From Callorhinchus milii (Eukaryota): DNA of 64,000 nt. Shown here in pieces: positions 3,353 to 59,607 of the stretch (position 1 is the stretch's first letter; each line of letters opens with the position of its first letter). The stretch is from the NCBI RefSeq assembly GCF_018977255.1, contig NW_024704743.1, positions 6,760,001 through 6,824,000 of the forward strand, written 5' to 3'. The translations under genes were made by a program, and so were the position numbers. The notes under the pieces are model-generated. The model did no database searches, had not been told where the DNA came from, and saw only the letters and a program-made list of their open reading frames with translations.

Positions 3353-3523
3353 CAACAAAGACAACGAGCCTGTACTTCTCGCTGGGCTGCCGCTGGTAAA
3401 AGACCACTTCTTCATAGGTTGGAACATCTGCAGTGTCGTACTGTTCACTTCTTTTACATTCGTACATGGATTTATTCATCTTCCTGTCTTTTCTGCTCAG
3501 TCGAAAACTTCTTCTGAAGCCAG
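3353..3523 (-). CDS. MPP7: MPP7 coding exon (HOOK end, start of guanylate kinase-like domain), 171 nt, phase 1-1
   Basis: Acceptor cttcattcttgcAG, donor TTG|GTaaat. Translates [56 protein letters not shown](G). Confidence 0.96.
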
Positions 3524-10099: not shown

Positions 10100-13000
10100 T
10101 TCTTTTGCGCATGAGTCAATGAATCAAGGCTACGTTTGATTCAATGAAGCCAGTAAGTGCGGGAGCAATAGAGGATATGGGAGCAGCATTATGAGATGAT
10201 AAATACGAGCAGTGGTTTTGATAGGAAACTAAATAGCTCTAAGGTGGATGTACAACTTAGACCATTATATGATTTATAAAGAAGACTTGTGCGTGTTTAC
10301 TGTATTCCTGAATGTAGCAGAAGTAGCAGCAAGGGAATATTTTGAAACTTTAGAGAGAGATGTGGAAATGCCATTAGATGATATCATGAATATTGTGCAG
10401 TGACGATGTTGTGGATAAAAAAACCATGTGACCACAGACCAGTACCAAATTTGGTACAAGAAAACAAAGGCCTACAGAGCTGATTATACAATATTTTGCG
10501 GTATTCAGATCATTAAGCTAGTCATCAATTAGGGAGTACTGAAAGAGGAAATGATTAGGGATCAGAGGGTGATTGGAATTAGACAACAAAATACACAATA
10601 AACTCTTAAAACAGGATTTTACATTGCAGACAGCAATACAAATAATAAATGTGGAGGAAAGTCAAACATATATGAAGGAAAAAGAGAAAGAAACAATAAG
10701 ATATGGAAATAGATAACTTGCTTCAAAGAATAGCTGGAATTACTGTGACACATGTGAGAAATGCAGATTAGAACATCTGTTAAGGAGATGTCCAACGGGA
10801 GGGAAGGATGTTATGTTTGCAATAAATATGGGCACAATGCAGGGAAATGCAGAAATAGACAACGAGAACCTGAGAGGATCTATGGAAGAATACAAGCGAT
10901 CAGAGGAAAGAATGATACGCGAAAGAAAGGAAGACAAAAGGATCGAGCAAGTGCGATCAAGGCACAATGAACTAGTGGACGGCTGGGAATTGGAATCCAG
11001 CGTTAGTGAAAAGGAAGACAAGTACTATATTGATATAAAGGAACTTGAAGGGAACAGAAGGGAAGGTAGTATCTCTGCACTAAAGAAAGAAAATACAAAC
11101 AGTGCAAATTAGATAAGAACCACAGGTAAATGCTGCTGGAAGAATAGCTAAAGTTGGGAAAACCAGCTATAGATAGATAGGAAACTGGATAGCCTAGAAC
11201 AAAGGGAAAATTGAAACAGTTGGCAGAGTGGAGCTAGAAAAGTAGGTTACACAAAATAACATTTTACATATTGAAAGGCCGACACTCTGGTTGGCCTTCA
11301 AGATAATTATAATGGGACTGCTTAAAGTCAGAATTGTGAATAAAGAAGACAGCAAAAGATTAGAACTTGAAGAAATGGTGAAAAACGTTTTCTGAGGGGA
11401 AAAGAGGATTAATGATATAAGGCTAAAGGAAACAGTAAAACCTATTATACAGCCCGTTAGAGTACAGTTTCATTTGTCCCCCGACCGCCTTCCCCGAAAG
11501 CAATGGTTGAAAGACTATAAAAACTTTAAAGGAAATGGTTTAACAACAACAACAAAATTACATTTGTATGGCTCCTTTCACGTCAGGAGGACGGTGATGG
11601 GTCAAGAGGCTGGACAATCAGTTTTTCGGACCCGAGCTGAGGATCAGATCATAAAGAAGGTAGAAAAACCCTGGCTGGTGAGTGCTTTAGTGATAATAGA
11701 AAAAACAGTCATTGATATGTTTAGACCCACAACAGCTAAGCAAAGCCATAAGAAGAGAGCTTTTATGCTGTATCTACTATGTAAGATACACATGCATTAT
11801 TATGCAGAGCAAAATTCTTTCCCACTAGATTGTCCATCAGGATATTGGCAGGTTAAGTTGACTGAGAATAGCATTTACGTGACAACATTTTCAACACCGT
11901 ATGGAAGATATTGTTTCCAGAGAATGTCATTTGGCATAAAGTCAGCCCAGGAAGTATTTCAAAAGAAATTAGTACAGAAGGAATACCAGCTGGAATAAAT
12001 GACATTGATGAACTAATAAACAAAAGAACAAGAAATTCTATGTACGCACCAGTTAAGATTTGTAGACGCAAGCAAAGCAGGGATACGAGCAGTACGATAA
12101 ACAAGAAGATACCATAGCATTTGCATCAAAAGCATTATCCAAAACAGAAAATACATCTAAATAATAGGAGAAAATGATCATAATTCATTTTTAAAAAAGG
12201 ACTCAATGAAACAAGTCAGTCTGCACTGGATGCAAATACTATTACAAAAATACAATATAGAATTTAAATACAAACCAGGACAGACAGATGCACTGAGATG
12301 AGCTACCAGTCAAGAAGGAAATGAAGGCAAAGGCGATGAGACAAAAAAGAGAGGCAAACAAAAGAGTTGGGAGTTAGTAATGCAATAAATATGTTGCAAA
12401 ACGGATGGCATGAAAAACAGGGCAAAAGCACCAGAAATTGTTTGACCGTACTGGGACTACAGACAGGAAATATATCAACAGAAAGGAATAATCTCTCAGA
12501 GATAGAATGGTAATCCCATGAGAATTAAAAAAGAGATTCTTGAAGAACATACATGAGGACACTGGGGAATAGAAAAAGCAAAAAGAGCAGTATTTGGCCC
12601 GGCATTAGTCAGATAGAGGACTGCATTGTAAAAGTCTGAGACATGTGCAAGATATCAGTACCTGAAAAAGCACAAACTTATCATTTGGTATGAGGGCCCA
12701 CGCAGGGCACGGACAAAGTAGGAACAGGCTTATTCTATTTTAAGGATAAGGATTCCCTAATGATGGACTACACATCAAAATGTTGTGAATATACAGAACT
12801 AAACACCATGACTACAGAGCCAATAATAAAACCAAAGAATGTTTTGCCCAGCATGGAATACTACAAGCGATGGACTCCCATAACCTAGTGGATAGTGCGC
12901 AACAAACACGGGGGCTGGGGGATGGAGCACAGGACAGCTTCCCCAGGATATCCACAAAGCAACAGATTGGTGGAGAGAGCAATACATAATGTATCAAGAA

Positions 13001-29446: not shown

Positions 29447-29488
29447 CTATATAGAGTCCGTTGATAACGCCACCATATTCAGCATCTT
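29447..29488 (-). CDS. MPP7: Candidate MPP7 HOOK cassette exon, 42 nt (39 nt with the distal NAGNAG acceptor), phase 1-1
   Basis: Branch-like ctctaac, pyrimidine tract, cttcctcCAG|AAG|ATGCT...ATAG|GTgagc. Reads (E)DAEYGGVINGLYI, resembling the insert I recall before AG(F/L)RRSFRL in fish MPP7 isoforms. Confidence 0.8.
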   Translation of the reverse strand, partial: KMLNMVALSTDSI

Positions 29489-32400
29489 CTGGAGGAAGGG
29501 TATAAGCACAAAGAATAAAGGCCAGGAAAAGAAGCAGAGTAGTTAGAGGTTCAGCCACAAATGCAGATACAAAGCAAGCCAACAAGCTAAGGTAAAGTAA
29601 TCTAAATTTCCTCAGGTTAACCAAGAATTTGCAGCTGTCAACATTAAATGCGATAGAATACTACTTTGTATATTTCTGTAGATGCATTAACAAATGATTT
29701 GGTTAATAGCAAAAAAAGTTACTTTAAACCAATACATTTTGAGAGCAAGCTTTGGTTTATAACTCAGAAATTGCCTTTGTGAAAATGGCAACTCGGAAAG
29801 CTCTAATAGCTTTCAAAACTTAAGTGGAAAGCAGTGCAGGATGTTATTCTAATTGTACACAAGAGCTATGGTCATCTGCATCATTTAGGTATTATTCTCC
29901 CTTTCTCTGCCTCCCACCTCCAGCCAAGTCAATCCGTACAATTGGGCGTTGGCTACAAACTGCACTTCAAATTAATGTTATTGCTGTTAACACGATGAAC
30001 ACTATTCACCAGTGCTTATTTTTCCTCCCACCACAATTTCCTTGTGATCGTTTAAAAGGAAGAGAATCATTTTAACTGAACGAGACAAGTTTTAAGTGGC
30101 ATCTTGTTACATCTGGCAATGTGTGTTGTAATTACTAGGTAATTTGAAAATGCTATTTATTCTGTAAGGACTGGCGAAAAACATACATTCAAAAACAAGT
30201 CGGAAGTAAATACTTGCAGTACTTATGAAGATTTAAACCCCTCTCACCATCTCCCTCACCCAGGTGGACAATCTACAAAGCATTCAATAGTGATGCACAC
30301 TGATGTGCTATATGCTCAGGACAGAAATACTGGCATTATGATGGTGTAAAGTTCACTTAAAATAGAATGAAGATTGCAGTGGCTGCACAAGACATAAGAA
30401 ATACAAAGAAAGTTTAAAATAAAATCTTGTGAATGATAAATCAGATTCTAATCAACAAAATGACGACTGATTTCAAAATGTTGATTTGCGGGATTGACAG
30501 GATCAATGATTCAATTTAAAATTCAGAAAGGAATCGAATGGAATTAGAGAAATTTCTCGAATGCTTTCTGTTAAATTGCTTTATTTTTATCCCCATTTTC
30601 CTTTCCCAATCAATACTTGCAGTCGATTTGGTGACCAGTTGAGTTGTGGATTAATTTCTTAGTTTCTTATAAGAACAGAGTTCTGGTTGTAGCATTGCAG
30701 AAAGGAAATTAGTTAATGGAAAAGTACAGGTTCCCGAGTGATATCAAGGAGTGAAGGGACATACTTATAAGGATTGACTCAGAACAATTAATTGGTTTCT
30801 ATTGGGAAAAGAATGTTGAATGGGGACTTGAGGTCTTCAAAATTCTTAAAAAGATTCTGAGAATATATTCCCAATGCTTATTAAATTTGTGAGGAGAGAG
30901 AACAAGCTCAAAATTGACATTACAAGAGTTAAGAGGGAGGCTGGAAAAATTTTCACAGGGGGTGGGGGAGGGGCAGGTGGTAGAATATAGAATGTCTTGC
31001 CACATTGACACTGGGCCTTGGGACGTCCTCCTGACGTGAAAGGTGCTCTACAAATATAATTTGTTGTTGGTAATTCAAACGGAGACCATACATTTCAAAG
31101 GAAATTAGATAAACATTTGAAGAGAAAGAATAGAAATGGTTACAGAAAAAGAGCAGGGAATAAGAGATTAGAGTTTTGGGTTCACAGTGTTTGGGCAAGG
31201 ATAAGCTTTGAGCTGTGGTGTGTGTGTGTATGTGTGTGTGTAATCCAGTGTTCGAAAACATCCCAATCCTGTAGGTAACCAGCTGTGAATTACGTCACAG
31301 CAAAGGAACATCACTATGATGCAAGCTCCCGTCTGAGGAGTGTTGGAACAGTGTTCTCATGCAATGGAGTGTTCTCATGAAATGGCACATTGCACATTTT
31401 GAGCTTGTTGGTGGAATAATACGTCACACCCTTAAGCTTAAAGCATAATGAAGACCAATTCACAACACTATTCTCCACCCATAAAATCCAATTTTTAAGC
31501 AGTTTCCCAAAAATTTTCAGCGGAGGCTATTTTTGGGGAATCTTAATCTGCAAATTAAGAGTATGGAGAAATTAACATTTTTGAAAAAAAACTGTCCTAA
31601 TGTTTGAGTAGTTTTATTACTGAGACACTAATAGCTTCTCAGCATCATTACATGAGCTAAAAATGTACACCAACTGGTTAGAACACAAAGACAGGAATCT
31701 CCACACAACCAATGGCAGGTTAAGGTTGATGCCCAAGACAGTGAGGTGGAAGGTGTCACTATTTTCATCATCTTAAATCCCCGCTTCCTCCACGGGAGAG
31801 CCTCACAATGTTGTATTTCAATTGTCAGCTTGCCACTTTCATGAGCTAAAAAGGGAAATGTAACCTAGCTCTGACAGAAGCAACATTTGACGAGGCTCCT
31901 CTTCTTCTGAGTAAGTGATTGTTGGGAAGATTGTCAGGCGTCAGTGCCAACGATGAAATAGATTCACCGCCTTGACCTCCTTCAAGTCATTCTCTGTCCT
32001 CGGAGTGTCTCCAAGACTCCCTTTTCCTGTATACCTAGATTTATCTCTGAATTATTGCCAGATTTGACAAAAATTAACCTTTTCAAAGTCACTCGAACAC
32101 CAAGCTGTCACAATTATGCATCTATTCGAAAAGATCAGAGTTCTTGTAACCTTACTCTGATGTGCTGCAGTAAATCAAATGAACTTACACTGTGTTTGTA
32201 ATGACATTTGATGGCATGATTTGGGTAGCAATTCACTCGTAAATGTCCAATATAAACAGGGACACGCATAGAGCAAATCAATAAGGAGCACTGCTCTTGA
32301 CATCACCTGGAGGAGGAATCACACTGGACTTGATCCACCCAAGATCTGCTCAAAGCTCTTGGATGACCATTGGGCGACCCAAGAACTTTGAATGGATGTT

Positions 32401-33051
32401 TTGAATGCTCTGAACGAGTCCTGTGATGACACATTAGAAGCCAAACATCCAATATTTATATAAGCAGAACACCAAGAGCGGGCACTGGCTCTTGGCAATG
32501 CAACAACAGCATTATCGAACAACAATCGAGAGATGCAAAACATGTGTTTCCCTCTGGACACAGTGGTGGCAGAAATCCAGTGCACCACTTGCTGTGAAAT
32601 TCCAGCAGATATTTGTATGCTATTATTCTACCTCAGCCCATTTTTCAGGAAAATCTCAGTGAATATCAGTGCAGCACAAACTTCCCACGTTGCAAACAGA
32701 ACCGTTAAACAATTGTGAACAATGGACTACAAGTCACAATTGTTTCTGTTCTCTTTGTAAAATAGTGTTGAGAGACCACCAACGAATTATACATCTCACT
32801 CACAACTGCAAAGAAACAATTGCTGAAACAGATTCACATCACATTAGGTTTTGCCAAAAATGAATTAACATAACATGACAATAGCTTCCGTTCTGCAGTC
32901 AAATGAAAATGCAAAAATACCTTCAGTTTCCTCTGGGAAGCAGAAAGGAATTGAAAAACCGCAAGATTAAAATGGCTAGAAATGAAACTGATCAAAATTA
33001 TTACTGCGATTAAATCACTTAATGAAAGACAGCAAAAGAAAGATAACCTAC

Positions 33052-33072
33052 CACTCTCAACAGTTTCCTCAT
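33052..33072 (-). CDS. MPP7: Candidate MPP7 HOOK microexon, 21 nt, phase 1-1
   Basis: Long U-rich tract then ggctgttctaAG|ATGAGGAAACTGTTGAGAGTG|GTaggt. In frame it reads (Y)EETVES. Confidence 0.75.
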
Positions 33073-35149
33073 CTTAGAACAGCCAAAAAAAACAGAGGAA
33101 AAAAAACAGAGATTTTTGCCTTTTTATAACTATCAACAAGGTAAAAAAATGAACACTCAAAACCACTTAACTCACTTGGAACAGATAGGATTTGCAATCA
33201 GAAATGGGTACGTCGTGCAAATAGACAGAACATTTCCAAGGTTTGTTAAGCTCAACAGTCTTTGCATTCCAGGTTGAAAGTGCTTTCCTTAAAAAAAATA
33301 CCAGCCTTGCATTTGGATAGAAAACAAAAATCTATAATTTTCTTTGATAATTTATACTAAGTTTGCCAATAAATGATTCACTTGGGAGTCTCAAATGTTG
33401 GGCCTTGGAATGCAATCCACTTTTTTCCTATAATATATTTTTCTGAAGTAATTTTCAATGCAATATAATTTTTATAACCCCCGGCCATTGCTTTTACTAA
33501 CATAAAAGAGTAAATGTTTCTGCATAAAGATATAGGTTCGGCGTCAGGATAGCTGTCTTTACTTTCTCCATTTGGAGCATTTATATTATACTAGCGTTTG
33601 TTTATCATGTACCTCATCTTGTGAACAGATCTGGCAGAACACTACACAATCAATAGTTTGAGAGTTAATGTCCTTTTTGGAAATAGAATCGCAGTCTATA
33701 TCACTGTATTTAGACTTGTGCCTTTCTGACAATTTAGTCCCTTAAATCACACTTATGGTCTGAGCCTCCTCCTCTTGGTTTACACAGATTCAAGAGAAAG
33801 GGTACTAATTTTTAAATTATTTTATGTCTAAAGTACTCAAGTTAATTAAGTAAACTGATTAAGAGAAATTCCTGCAAGAAGTTCCCACTACAGATGAAGT
33901 TCATTGCTGCAAGATGTAAAATTGCTTGCAAATAACTGCTTTACATTATTTCTAAACTTTTGGCCTTTTGAAAATTGGTACCATGCACAAAGCATTCTTT
34001 CTTTTGTCTCTGTTCAAGTTCAAATGCAACTGAATGTGGTACCGCAGTTGAGACAAAACTTGGTGGTTAAACTAGGTTACATCTTGTTCAAATGAATAAC
34101 ATTTGGATGCAGTTAAAAACTTCCTCCTGTTCATGTGGTCTTAATTCCATAAATCGAAGTTAAATAAAAATGAAAAAATATAACTAAACGCTATCAAAAC
34201 TTGTAGGGACCTTATAATGTACGTTTACAAGCCATTTCTGGTGCTGTAATAATGTTCAAAATTGTCTAGGGTAACAAAAGGTACAGAGGGCTTCTTTTAA
34301 TTCATTCATGGAAAATGCATATTTGAGAACATGGCAGTCCAGCTGCTTAAATCAAACACTTAAAAAAGAGTACATCATGTTTAGTATTAAATTGCCATCG
34401 TTGTTTTTTTTCCAAATAGTTGGGGAGACTGAGACTTTGGAAAGAATTTGACTGCAGCAGTAATGTGACTGTTTCTCCTCAGGCAACTACAGTGAAAAAT
34501 ATAATTCTTTGAACTGATGTTCCCCCCAAATAACCACCATATTTCTATCTCAGGTGAGAATTCTATAACCAGAGCTCCTGTAATTCATTCTGGTTCTGGC
34601 AGCATGGGACAAATTAATAGGGACTAAAAACTGGCAAGTTTTTCTTATTTTAAAATGTTGTATCAATTGAACTAATCGCAGTCGTAAAATGGAACTCAGA
34701 ACATGTCAAATGTTCGTACTGTGAAATGAAGCCACAGGCAAACAAGCTTCCAACATTTATCAGAGGTGAAGGTTAAGGAAGCAACTCAAGACTCAACATA
34801 GCATAGCATTCCACTGCCAACCAGGTGCTCAGTATTTTAGAGGCCCTACTGTCGTAATTTTCTTTCATCAATTTGGGGTTTCACCCCTTCACGGGCACTG
34901 CCCGATATGAAATCTCGCACGACACTGGGATAAATCAAGGTGTGGCAAGGTTGGAAGGGCAACAGCATTAAGCCTTCCCTGGTTGGCAGAATGGTGAGCA
35001 GCCTGCAAGATGGGAGAAATGGAGGAAAGACTCAAAGAAGCAGATCTAAAATGACTGCACTGAAACATCCAGGATTGTATTATCTAAAGATATTTACCGA
35101 AACATTCAAGTAAAAACATCTATGGCTAGCAAATGGGTTATTGACTCAC

Positions 35150-35214
35150 ATGATCGTCTACTGGAATTCCTTTGTGGTTGAACAAATGCTACAGGTCTTC
35201 TAAGTGCAAATCTC
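35150..35214 (-). CDS. MPP7: MPP7 coding exon (HOOK), 65 nt, phase 2-1
   Basis: Acceptor tctttctgcAG, donor T|GTgagt. Translates (R)RFALRRPVAFVQPQRNSSRRS; phases fit both neighbours. Confidence 0.92.
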
Positions 35215-35732: not shown

Positions 35733-35929
35733 CTCTCCTGGAACTGCTTTGAAGGGATTAGACCTGCTCTCAGATTGGCATCACACTCGCGCTTGGCTTG
35801 CCACCAGGTTCCATCATCTTGGCTGACGATCTGAAGGATATCTCCCTTCTTGAAAGAAAGCCCAGCTTCTTTACATGGAATAGCTTTATCCTCGTTAGGA
35901 TCATAGTCAAACAGGGTCCTGACAAACAT
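35733..35929 (-). CDS. MPP7: MPP7 coding exon (SH3), 197 nt, phase 0-2
   Basis: Acceptor tgttgccAG, donor AG|GTagct. Translates [65 protein letters not shown](R), a MAGUK SH3 domain. Confidence 0.97.
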
Positions 35930-58976: not shown

Positions 58977-59607
58977 GGAGTCCTGTAGCATAGTGGTTAG
59001 AGCACTCGCCTCACAAGTGAGAGACCTGAGTTTGATTCCTGGACAGGACGGAGTGGAACCAGGAAAGGGTGAAACCTTAGGCAAGTTTTCTTACTCCACA
59101 TGCCTCTGTTTACCTAGTAGTAAGTCAGAACCTGGTTGTTATTCGATTGGTTGATTGCTTTCTGGGGTAATAATCCCTTCAAAATACATACATGCATAAT
59201 TTGGTCACTCAATCCACAACTGTTTGTGGGACACTGCTGTGCACAATTGGCTGCCGCATTTCGCCCACATAACAACAAGAAGAAGATTGCATTTATAGAG
59301 CGCTTTCACGTCGGGAGGACGTCCCAAGGTGCTGGACAGTTGGGTCGGGACCCGAGCAGGGCGGAAATGGTCAGGGTGAGGGAAGGGAGGGAGCGAGGAG
59401 GGGGTAGAGAGTTGAGAGGGGAGGTGAAGGCACGGTTGAAGAGAAAGGTCTTGAGACCGGCCTTGAAGGAGGAAAGGGAGGAAGCAAAGCATAATATACA
59501 TAATATACACTCAATTCACTTTACAGTGAAGCACTTTGAGACATCTCATCAACATGATAAGGCTCTATACCAAATGCAAGGATTACTATTATTATTGTTA
59601 TTATTAT
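58977..59607 (+). mobile_element. tRNA(Ala)-derived SINE, long variant, with a nested antisense L2 3' fragment (~59270-59490)
   Basis: SINE body breaks after tttcgcccaca and resumes near atatacactcaattcac; the insert begins with an (AAC)n-type tail and tgcatttatagagcgc. Confidence 0.88.

Follow-up and report, generated by a model that had tools for sequence, protein, structure and literature searches.

The intron in the HOOK loop of elephant shark (Callorhinchus milii) MPP7 holds three cassette exons, A, B and C, rather than two, and some of the possible joins between them and the upstream core exon create a stop codon across the junction. The anatomy of the cassette, transcripts that contain or skip all three exons, and use of both acceptors of exon C were observed in the elephant shark. 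The junction-stop arrangement is real, ancient and common to MPP7 and MPP3. The explanation that we favour, with slightly more confidence than doubt, is a cassette in which the stop serves as a passive filter, having come about as a by-product of split Glu codons. A filter function is plausible, but unproven.

Exon layout of the HOOK-loop intron

The window, the whole stretch of 64,000 nt analysed here, carries on its minus strand a gene identified from its encoded protein as MPP7, a cell-junction scaffold gene. The domains follow the order L27, PDZ, SH3, HOOK and GK, with MPP7 as the nearest relative and most of GK lying outside the window. The L27 match was above the Pfam cut-off and the PDZ match was weaker, and the best PDB match was the MPP7 PDZ domain (3O46). 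RefSeq holds three C. milii MPP7 forms, namely, X1 of 601 aa, X2 of 589 aa and X3 of 576 aa (XP_007903643/645/646). RefSeq X1 contains A, B and C from its proximal acceptor, RefSeq X2 contains only C from its distal acceptor, and the third form skips the cassette. Residues 106–400 of RefSeq X1 were collinear in the window, exons A and B being located separately. In addition, four of 19 sequencing runs, available as assembled contigs only and presumed to be RNA, were examined. The features are as follows (positions in the window).

35733..35929, minus strand: constitutive SH3 exon of MPP7 (tblastn of RefSeq X1)
35150..35214, minus strand: core exon, 65 nt, where the HOOK loop begins; last base a lone T, phase 1 (sequence, run contigs)
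33052..33072, minus strand: exon A, 21-nt microexon encoding YEETVES, begins AT, last base G, the gate exon (RefSeq X1, run X1 contig, mouse MmuEX0029562)
32921..32932, minus strand: exon B, 12-nt microexon encoding EETE, begins AG (run X1 contig, RefSeq, MmuEX6000123, HsaEX0039996)
29489..29565, minus strand: conserved intron end upstream of exon C, with a CTAAC branch-point-like motif, a pyrimidine tract and TGC at −20/−48 (putative role)
29486..29491, minus strand: tandem acceptor CAG-AAG, cut proximally at 29488 and distally at 29485 (sequence, RefSeq, run contig)
29447..29488, minus strand: exon C, 42 nt (39 nt if cut at 29485), begins AA (RefSeq X1 and X2, run X1 contig, HsaEX1024120, GgaEX0010525)
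3353..3523, minus strand: exon D, next constitutive exon, end of the HOOK loop, SH3-closing strand and start of GK, begins CT (100% identity to four C. milii MPP7 entries)

The 518-nt intron between the SH3 exon and the core exon was spliced in all four runs. The flanks of exon A read tAAG/AT...G/gtagg. The RefSeq peptide was scored against AG..GT candidates of matching length from the 31.6-kb intron. Exon A came first of 73 and exon B first of 86, both at full self score, indicating that neither is a chance AG..GT match. The earlier note had described a cassette of two exons; A and C are indeed present, but exon B (12 nt, 32932–32921) had been overlooked. For extra hidden exons of the frog, lizard, molly or MPP4 type, none of the 43–76 candidates each came near the self score. 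The intron stretch 29489..29565 can be aligned to read-through gene models from finch, turtle and rattlesnake. Three gene models have a hydrophobic coding extension upstream of C; we rejected it and attribute it to read-through of the pyrimidine tract. Its frame is closed at 71 codons from the end of C.

Stop codons at the exon junctions

The junction bases were as the earlier note had read them. The core exon ends in TCA T/gt at 35150, the 42-nt exon (29488–29447) opens with AA after CAG, and the direct join of the core exon to proximal C gives an immediate stop (T/AA). In silico splicing likewise returned Glu at the junction of A, which ends in G, with proximal C, and Tyr or Asp where the core exon or A, respectively, is joined to distal C. 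The core–B junction reads T/AG, a stop unless A is included, and exon B is a stricter case than C because it has no rescue acceptor. Four of the 12 combinations contained a stop: the one that has only proximal C, and all three that include B and lack A. In transcripts that lack A and include B or proximal C, the terminal T of the core exon is followed by the second and third bases of a Glu codon, which places a stop after residue 317. The donor of exon D lies approximately 210 nt beyond this stop, far enough to satisfy the 50-nt rule for nonsense-mediated decay (NMD), and such transcripts are most likely degraded by this route.

In run X1, A, B and proximal C are spliced together in one contig, with a depth of 149 versus 250 on the core exon, and by depth bookkeeping this is the only contig covering exon C in that run. 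The skip form was found as a core-to-D join at a loose end in runs X3 and X5 (tissues of the runs unrecorded). Both acceptors of exon C, as had been claimed, are used: the proximal in the run X1 contig and RefSeq X1, the distal in RefSeq X2, which is its sole source here, as distal use was not seen in the contigs of the four runs. Joins from 35150 to 29488, 29485 or 32932 were not among the joints listed for any of the four runs; contigs drop rare forms, joints close to contig ends are not displayed and 99 loose ends fell outside the listing, so their absence from these joints is no evidence that the joins do not exist. The suggestion that inclusion of C is coupled to microexon A was contradicted by the distal-C-only RefSeq form and by the distal-C-only proteins among MPP7 entries (29 of 200, with redundancy). 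B-only or proximal-C-only proteins were not found among the same 200 entries, an observation that is circular because such proteins would not be full-length.

The presence of only A+B+proximal C over exon C in run X1, together with the loss of the stop in some lineages, would fit pure coincidence without any consequence, with A, B and C tightly co-regulated, C-only transcripts choosing the distal AG, and stop-forming joins hardly made. We regard this as improbable. CAG is generally a stronger acceptor than AAG, and C-only splicing should therefore often take the proximal site. Furthermore, a mouse event table gives the upstream partner of B as A and also as the core exon, and this direct core–B pairing, in conjunction with mouse RefSeq X8, suggests that stop joins occur. 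Mouse RefSeq X8, a protein of 317 aa that terminates exactly at the core exon, partly bears out the GK-less product proposed earlier; the annotation of X8 does not show which exon follows the core.

In run X2, a base change at 29487 destroys the distal AG. A-to-I editing was not supported as its source: 99 of 100 shuffled sequences fold better than the surrounding 401-nt region, the site lies in none of the 25 inverted repeats, and the changes in run X2 run in both directions. A polymorphism is more likely.

Conservation and SRRM4 response in orthologues and paralogues

Exons A, B and C are already catalogued exons, known from elephant shark to mammals. The catalogued MPP7 exons (VastDB-type ids MmuEX0029562, MmuEX6000123, HsaEX0039996, HsaEX1024120 and GgaEX0010525) share gene, place, lengths and order with them and have alignable peptides, and the A–B intron is 119 nt in elephant shark versus 122 nt in mouse MPP7. 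The catalogue rows, as far as retrieved, give inclusion only and do not note that a stop arises at the junction or that B and proximal C require A. For mouse exon B (MmuEX6000123), the PSI was 93 in retina, 49 in neural and 3 in other samples, and for chicken exon C (GgaEX0010525, 39 nt) it was 77 in retina. In the presence of SRRM4, human exon B (HsaEX0039996, 12 nt) rose from 0 to 93 and human exon C (HsaEX1024120, 42 nt) from 0 to 57. By analogy with these mouse, chicken and human orthologues, inclusion in the elephant shark would be neural, retinal and SRRM4-dependent. Mouse MmuEX0029562 is a 21-nt exon at the place matching exon A; a human 21-nt exon was not found among the MPP7 rows retrieved. 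Exons A (21 nt) and B (12 nt) have the length of SRRM3/4 microexons (at most 27 nt, a multiple of three), and exon C, at 39–42 nt, is longer. TGC precedes the acceptor at −10/−31 for B and at −20/−48 for C, but also at −5 to −7 at constitutive exons, and none lies within 60 nt upstream of exon A.

The terminal T of the core exon was conserved, as anticipated: of 343 full spans, 342 carry Y, S, C or L as the residue across the core junction, codon-level conservation here being deduced from proteins and not from orthologous DNA. Judged likewise from proteins, distal C use is annotated in chimaera, rays, turtles, alligator, frog, lungfish and chicken, which implies that AAG is required at a synonymous site.

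MPP3 resembles MPP7 in having a core exon with a terminal T, a 21-nt exon and a 42-nt exon that opens on a split Glu codon, and its truncated products stop at the same register. The first residue of C was Glu in 119 of 120 MPP3 entries and Ala, without a stop, in one turtle. Unlike MPP7, MPP3 had no exon B in these 120 entries, and its skip on record splices the core directly onto the small exon that comes next; in MPP7, by contrast, the default would be a productive skip of the whole cassette. The mouse Mpp3 21-nt exon (MmuEX0029537) is alternative and classed as a simple event. Human MPP3 mRNA rose 2.1–2.9-fold in four of six lines at 24 h with wild-type SRRM4 compared with the mutant control, and 2.3-fold in SRRM4-induced xenografts. 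The increase fits a rescue from NMD, but is no proof of it. In MPP4 of characiform fish, segments resembling A, B and C follow one another as in MPP7, and an additional exon-like segment lies ahead of A; this shared order suggests that the cassette is older than the MPP3/4/7 split. Rows for mpp3, mpp4 or mpp7 were absent from 12 files of PMC12626424.

By-product or selected device

Under the favoured explanation, the three exons would represent an ancestral HOOK-loop cassette of the MPP3/4/7 scaffolds, which SRRM3/4 in neurons and photoreceptors may promote as a set. Inclusion would lengthen a disordered SH3–GK loop (pLDDT was below 50 for residues 302–374) by at most 25 residues, the majority of them acidic. 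Transcripts that survive the filter would be those that begin with A or take the distal acceptor. The stop probably originated incidentally, through the splitting of Glu codons, and probably persisted because flawed combinations are cleared; in MPP3 this arrangement may serve as an active switch of expression.

To regard the stop instead as a built-in device, selected as such, is a matter of interpretation. In that case the T/Glu split and the tandem acceptor would be kept by selection, with A as an obligatory gate, the acceptor tied to the upstream exon, and NMD tuning expression. The first residue of C was Glu in all 13 distinct MPP7 versions, and the MPP3 counts, the cross-clade annotation of the distal acceptor, the simple mouse Mpp3 event and the response of MPP3 mRNA to SRRM4 point in the same direction. 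However, position 4 of C, away from the junction, was equally invariant (Glu in 13 of 13), and a split codon that follows a G-ending exon would be stop-forming by chance with a probability of approximately 0.27–0.31 in the protein and 0.5 in the insert, so that in Glu-rich inserts junction stops are likely to occur by chance (~0.3). Moreover, lungfish have Asp and molly has Ala as the first residue of exon B, which removes the stop there as in the turtle MPP3, and the run X2 variant abolishes the distal AG. The SRRM4-responsive event HsaEX0039967 was assigned to MPP3 by its neighbouring id alone, a search of 18 files giving no match that would confirm the gene, and the rise in MPP3 mRNA could stem from the inactivation of REST by SRRM4 described in a published abstract. 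Taken together, we consider selection of this logic rather unlikely.

Far less probable is that the stop forms are purposely made and translated into a 317-aa GK-less L27-L27-PDZ scaffold competing with the full-length protein. Proteins ending at the core exon are represented by mouse MPP7 X8, a pangolin model and a crow MPP3 model, and also by eight unnamed MPP3 contig translations, although the latter may simply end at contig branch points. An MPP3 variant without GK is reportedly generated by loss of a 21-bp exon. Against such a scaffold, the stop lies where NMD is expected, and the product would be without strand 379–385 of the predicted structure, which closes the split MAGUK SH3 fold.

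As in poison or essential exons of AS-NMD, exon choice here sets a premature stop far upstream of later junctions. The difference is that the cassette exons are all in-frame and stop-free, the stop being built from two exons; passages in PMC13247117 treat in-exon stops and frameshifts. Full-text literature searches, judged on titles and abstract openings, found no paper on the MPP7/MPP3 junction stop.

Frame-preserving microexons are usually taken as minor protein edits. A wider and tentative proposal, which we hold to be doubtful, is that a 21-nt in-frame neural microexon acts as an antidote exon that removes a stop existing only at the joint, in a cassette predating the MPP3/4/7 duplication. 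This cassette would be an SRRM3/4-driven NMD-rescue switch in MPP3 and an order-enforcing proofreading gate in MPP7, as one of a wider, overlooked class of split-stop microexons. If so, the antidote exon would act by separating a T-ending exon from Glu-starting exons, the MPP7 gate would make the NAGNAG choice seem dependent on the upstream exon, and in-frame microexons of this class would set gene level through split stop codons. As the order of inclusion would decide between a protein and a premature stop, event-by-event catalogues would miss the outcome, and deletion of exon A alone in a microexon screen would amount to a partial neuronal knock-down, not to the loss of 7 residues. Thanks to the MPP3 expression data, the idea could be tested cheaply on SRRM4 and UPF1 datasets that already exist. 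Should the stop be a mere by-product, the finding is that known retinal and neural MPP7 exons trace back to cartilaginous fish.

Gene, exons and the stop at the core junction

The cassette is housed by a p55-type MAGUK gene on the minus strand. An L27 domain of this gene scored above the Pfam cut-off, the top solved-structure match of its PDZ exon was MPP7, exon 3523–3353 matched four Callorhinchus milii MPP7 entries at 100% identity (120 of 853 matches being listed), and RefSeq isoform X1 aligned exon by exon across the window. The core exon and exon D flank the 31.6-kb intron that contains the cassette, which falls within the HOOK loop (residues 302–374, disordered by prediction); PALS1 chains 4WSI and 7M4R align to residues 135–292 and 375–599 with continuous numbering, the loop being missing. 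The exons are as follows.

35214–35150 (−), core exon, ending in a lone T
33072–33052 (−), exon A, 21-nt microexon
32932–32921 (−), exon B, 12 nt, starting AG, 119 nt past exon A; it has a pyrimidine tract, and TGC stands at −10 and −31
29488–29447 (−), exon C, 42 nt from the proximal acceptor (cut 29488) or 39 nt from the distal one (cut 29485) of a CAG-AAG tandem
3523–3353 (−), exon D, next constitutive exon

Also in the long intron, a 200-codon open frame (11396–11998, +) looks by eye like a decayed retroelement reverse-transcriptase fragment. A short, very high-copy repeat segment lies at about 31010–31070 (bin depth 3,000–29,000 in four runs), with similar text near 59200–59600.

The earlier note had proposed a stop built into splicing, the core's T and C's AA giving TAA unless the microexon or the distal acceptor is used. 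Every base that it gave for the core end, the microexon and the 42-nt exon matched the window sequence, and the junction stop was confirmed; its interpretation was partly supported and had overlooked exon B. RefSeq isoform X1 exceeds the skip form by 25 residues, not 21, and a third exon was therefore sought and found. Among 12 combinations spliced in silico, eight frames were open and four stopped after residue 317, namely, proximal C alone (T joined to AA) and three having B without A (T joined to AG). B lacks an alternative acceptor that could avoid the stop, which makes its dependence on A stricter than that of C. The CAG-AAG tandem is an automatic consequence of GAA followed by a codon starting with G. 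A tentative and rather doubtful reading is that of an antidote microexon, in which in-frame exon A removes a stop existing only at the exon joint. The cassette exons themselves are already catalogued; no description of the MPP7 junction stop was found in the literature searched, which mostly excluded subscription papers. Conservation of the intron end before exon C, 29489–29565 (−), extends to finch, turtle and rattlesnake, where automated gene models mistranslate it as a hydrophobic stretch.

Transcripts, neural regulation and stop forms

Transcript evidence came from contigs of four of the 19 listed runs, their RNA nature being guessed. In sequencing run X1, a single contig linked proximal-acceptor C, B (as reverse complement letters) and A at a depth of 149, compared with 250 for the core exon. 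The bin depths over C matched that of this contig within 0.1%, so this run retained no alternative path through C. Runs X3 and X5 joined the core exon to exon D. Core-to-C and core-to-B joins were not listed in the four runs, whose contigs drop rare forms, so that absence is not implied. RefSeq gives three isoforms: A+B+proximal C in X1 (601 aa), distal C alone in X2 (589 aa) and the skip form in X3 (576 aa). An unspliced contig of run X2 carried A to G at 29487 (transcript sense), changing CAG-AAG to CAG-AGG; the distal AG is lost, while Glu after A or B and the stop after the core exon are retained. This argues that the distal acceptor is dispensable in elephant shark. No pairing structure that would support editing at 29487 was found, and polymorphism is therefore the more likely source.

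The mouse 21-nt exon (chr18:7430395-7430415) is NEURAL-UP in Table S2 of PMC8395343 and classed as Neural in PMC8797185, where the event for B names the core exon as direct upstream partner. The mouse 12-nt exon, 122 nt downstream of the 21-nt exon, has a PSI of 93 in retina, 49 in neural tissue and 3 elsewhere, and the chicken 39-nt exon 77, 34 and 8.5, respectively (PMC9303857). Upon SRRM4 expression, the human 12-nt exon rose from 0 to 93 and the 42-nt exon from 0 to 57 (PMC7935315), and the two reached 66 and 26 in MCF7; the human 21-nt exon was absent among the supplement rows found. Exon B of the window is orthologous to the 12-nt microexon that is retina-enriched in mouse and SRRM4-induced in human.

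Mouse RefSeq X8 (XP_017173498, 317 aa) has its C-terminus exactly at the core exon; read-through into the intron would append Cys, as in 17 other entries. By the 50-nt rule, a stop far enough ahead of a later junction leads to NMD, which would be expected for the stop forms from their sequence because the stop lies approximately 210 nt upstream of the exon D donor. Any surviving 317-aa protein would be without GK and strand 379–385, which closes the split SH3 fold of MAGUKs. Kantardzhieva et al. 2006 (FEBS J 273:1152) reportedly described a GK-less MPP3 variant through loss of a 21-bp exon; that such a GK-less protein is functional here seems very improbable.

Conservation in MPP7, MPP3 and MPP4

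Cassette forms among 200 MPP7 entries (redundant isoforms, not independent species)
Form; entries; lineages
Skip form; 112
Distal C only; 29; chimaera, rays, turtles, alligator
A+B+proximal C; 18; chimaera, turtles, birds, frogs
A+proximal C; 10; rays, squamates
A+B+distal C; 2; frog, lungfish
A+distal C; 1
A+B; 3
A only; 3
A+B plus frog exon; 3
Lizard-specific exon; 10
Odd models; 2
Entries without the span; 7

Mouse X7 carries A+B+proximal C. No full-length entry among the 200 had B or proximal C without A, an argument that is circular. The core's terminal T held up in a wider comparison: the junction residue in 343 full MPP7 and MPP3 spans (655 proteins) was mostly Y (202) or S (135), followed by C (3), L (2) and G (1), and Y or C implies that the core exon ends in T. 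Squamate C exons have Glu as their second residue, and use of the distal acceptor would therefore presumably be no rescue there. In lungfish, exon B starts with Asp, and in molly with Ala; no stop is formed in either. In lacertid lizards, frogs and mollies, the same intron of the HOOK loop holds additional exons specific to the lineage (P0070, P0173, P0345), for which no counterpart was found in the window.

At the same place, MPP3 had 7-residue and 14-residue segments in 120/120 listed entries, the latter beginning with Glu in 119 (120 listed of 767 matches, from a query biased toward insert-bearing forms), and segments resembling A, B and C were present in fish MPP4. In mouse Mpp3, the 21-nt exon is alternatively spliced in a simple event, with its downstream partner approximately 520 nt on (PMC8797185). 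This partner is presumably the 42-nt exon, and skipping the 21-nt exon would therefore make the same stop. In crow, an MPP3 model of 315 aa stops at the corresponding core-junction residue, as do eight unnamed MPP3 contig translations, which may be mere contig ends. With wild-type versus mutant SRRM4, human MPP3 mRNA was 2.69-fold higher in DU145, 2.93-fold in HeLa, 2.14-fold in HCT116 and 2.13-fold in MDA-MB-231; in the same file, MPP3 has no entry for the remaining two lines, and the sole MPP7 entry, for SH-SY5Y, is at a near-zero level (PMC7935315 file 9). This rise fits rescue from NMD, as if the 21-nt exon removed the junction stop; REST inactivation is a possible alternative cause. HsaEX0039967, its gene unnamed in the source, changed in PSI from 9 to 92 in xenografts and from 7 to 91 in neurons, and was tentatively assigned to MPP3 from an adjacent id.

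Selection or by-product

G is the last base of both A and B, and Glu makes up 8/25 insert residues; a split Glu codon, and hence a stop after T, therefore has a chance prior of approximately 0.27–0.31 from the whole protein or 0.5 from the insert. The junction Glu was unchanged in 13/13 distinct versions of C, but the non-junction Glu at position 4 was equally so. The age of the arrangement, its occurrence in MPP3 and the expression data for MPP3 point towards use, but this chance prior, the invariance of position 4, the lineage exceptions and the run X2 variant point away from strict design; we consider selected splicing logic rather unlikely. A coincidence without consequence appears improbable. 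We lean slightly towards the junction stop as a passive filter.
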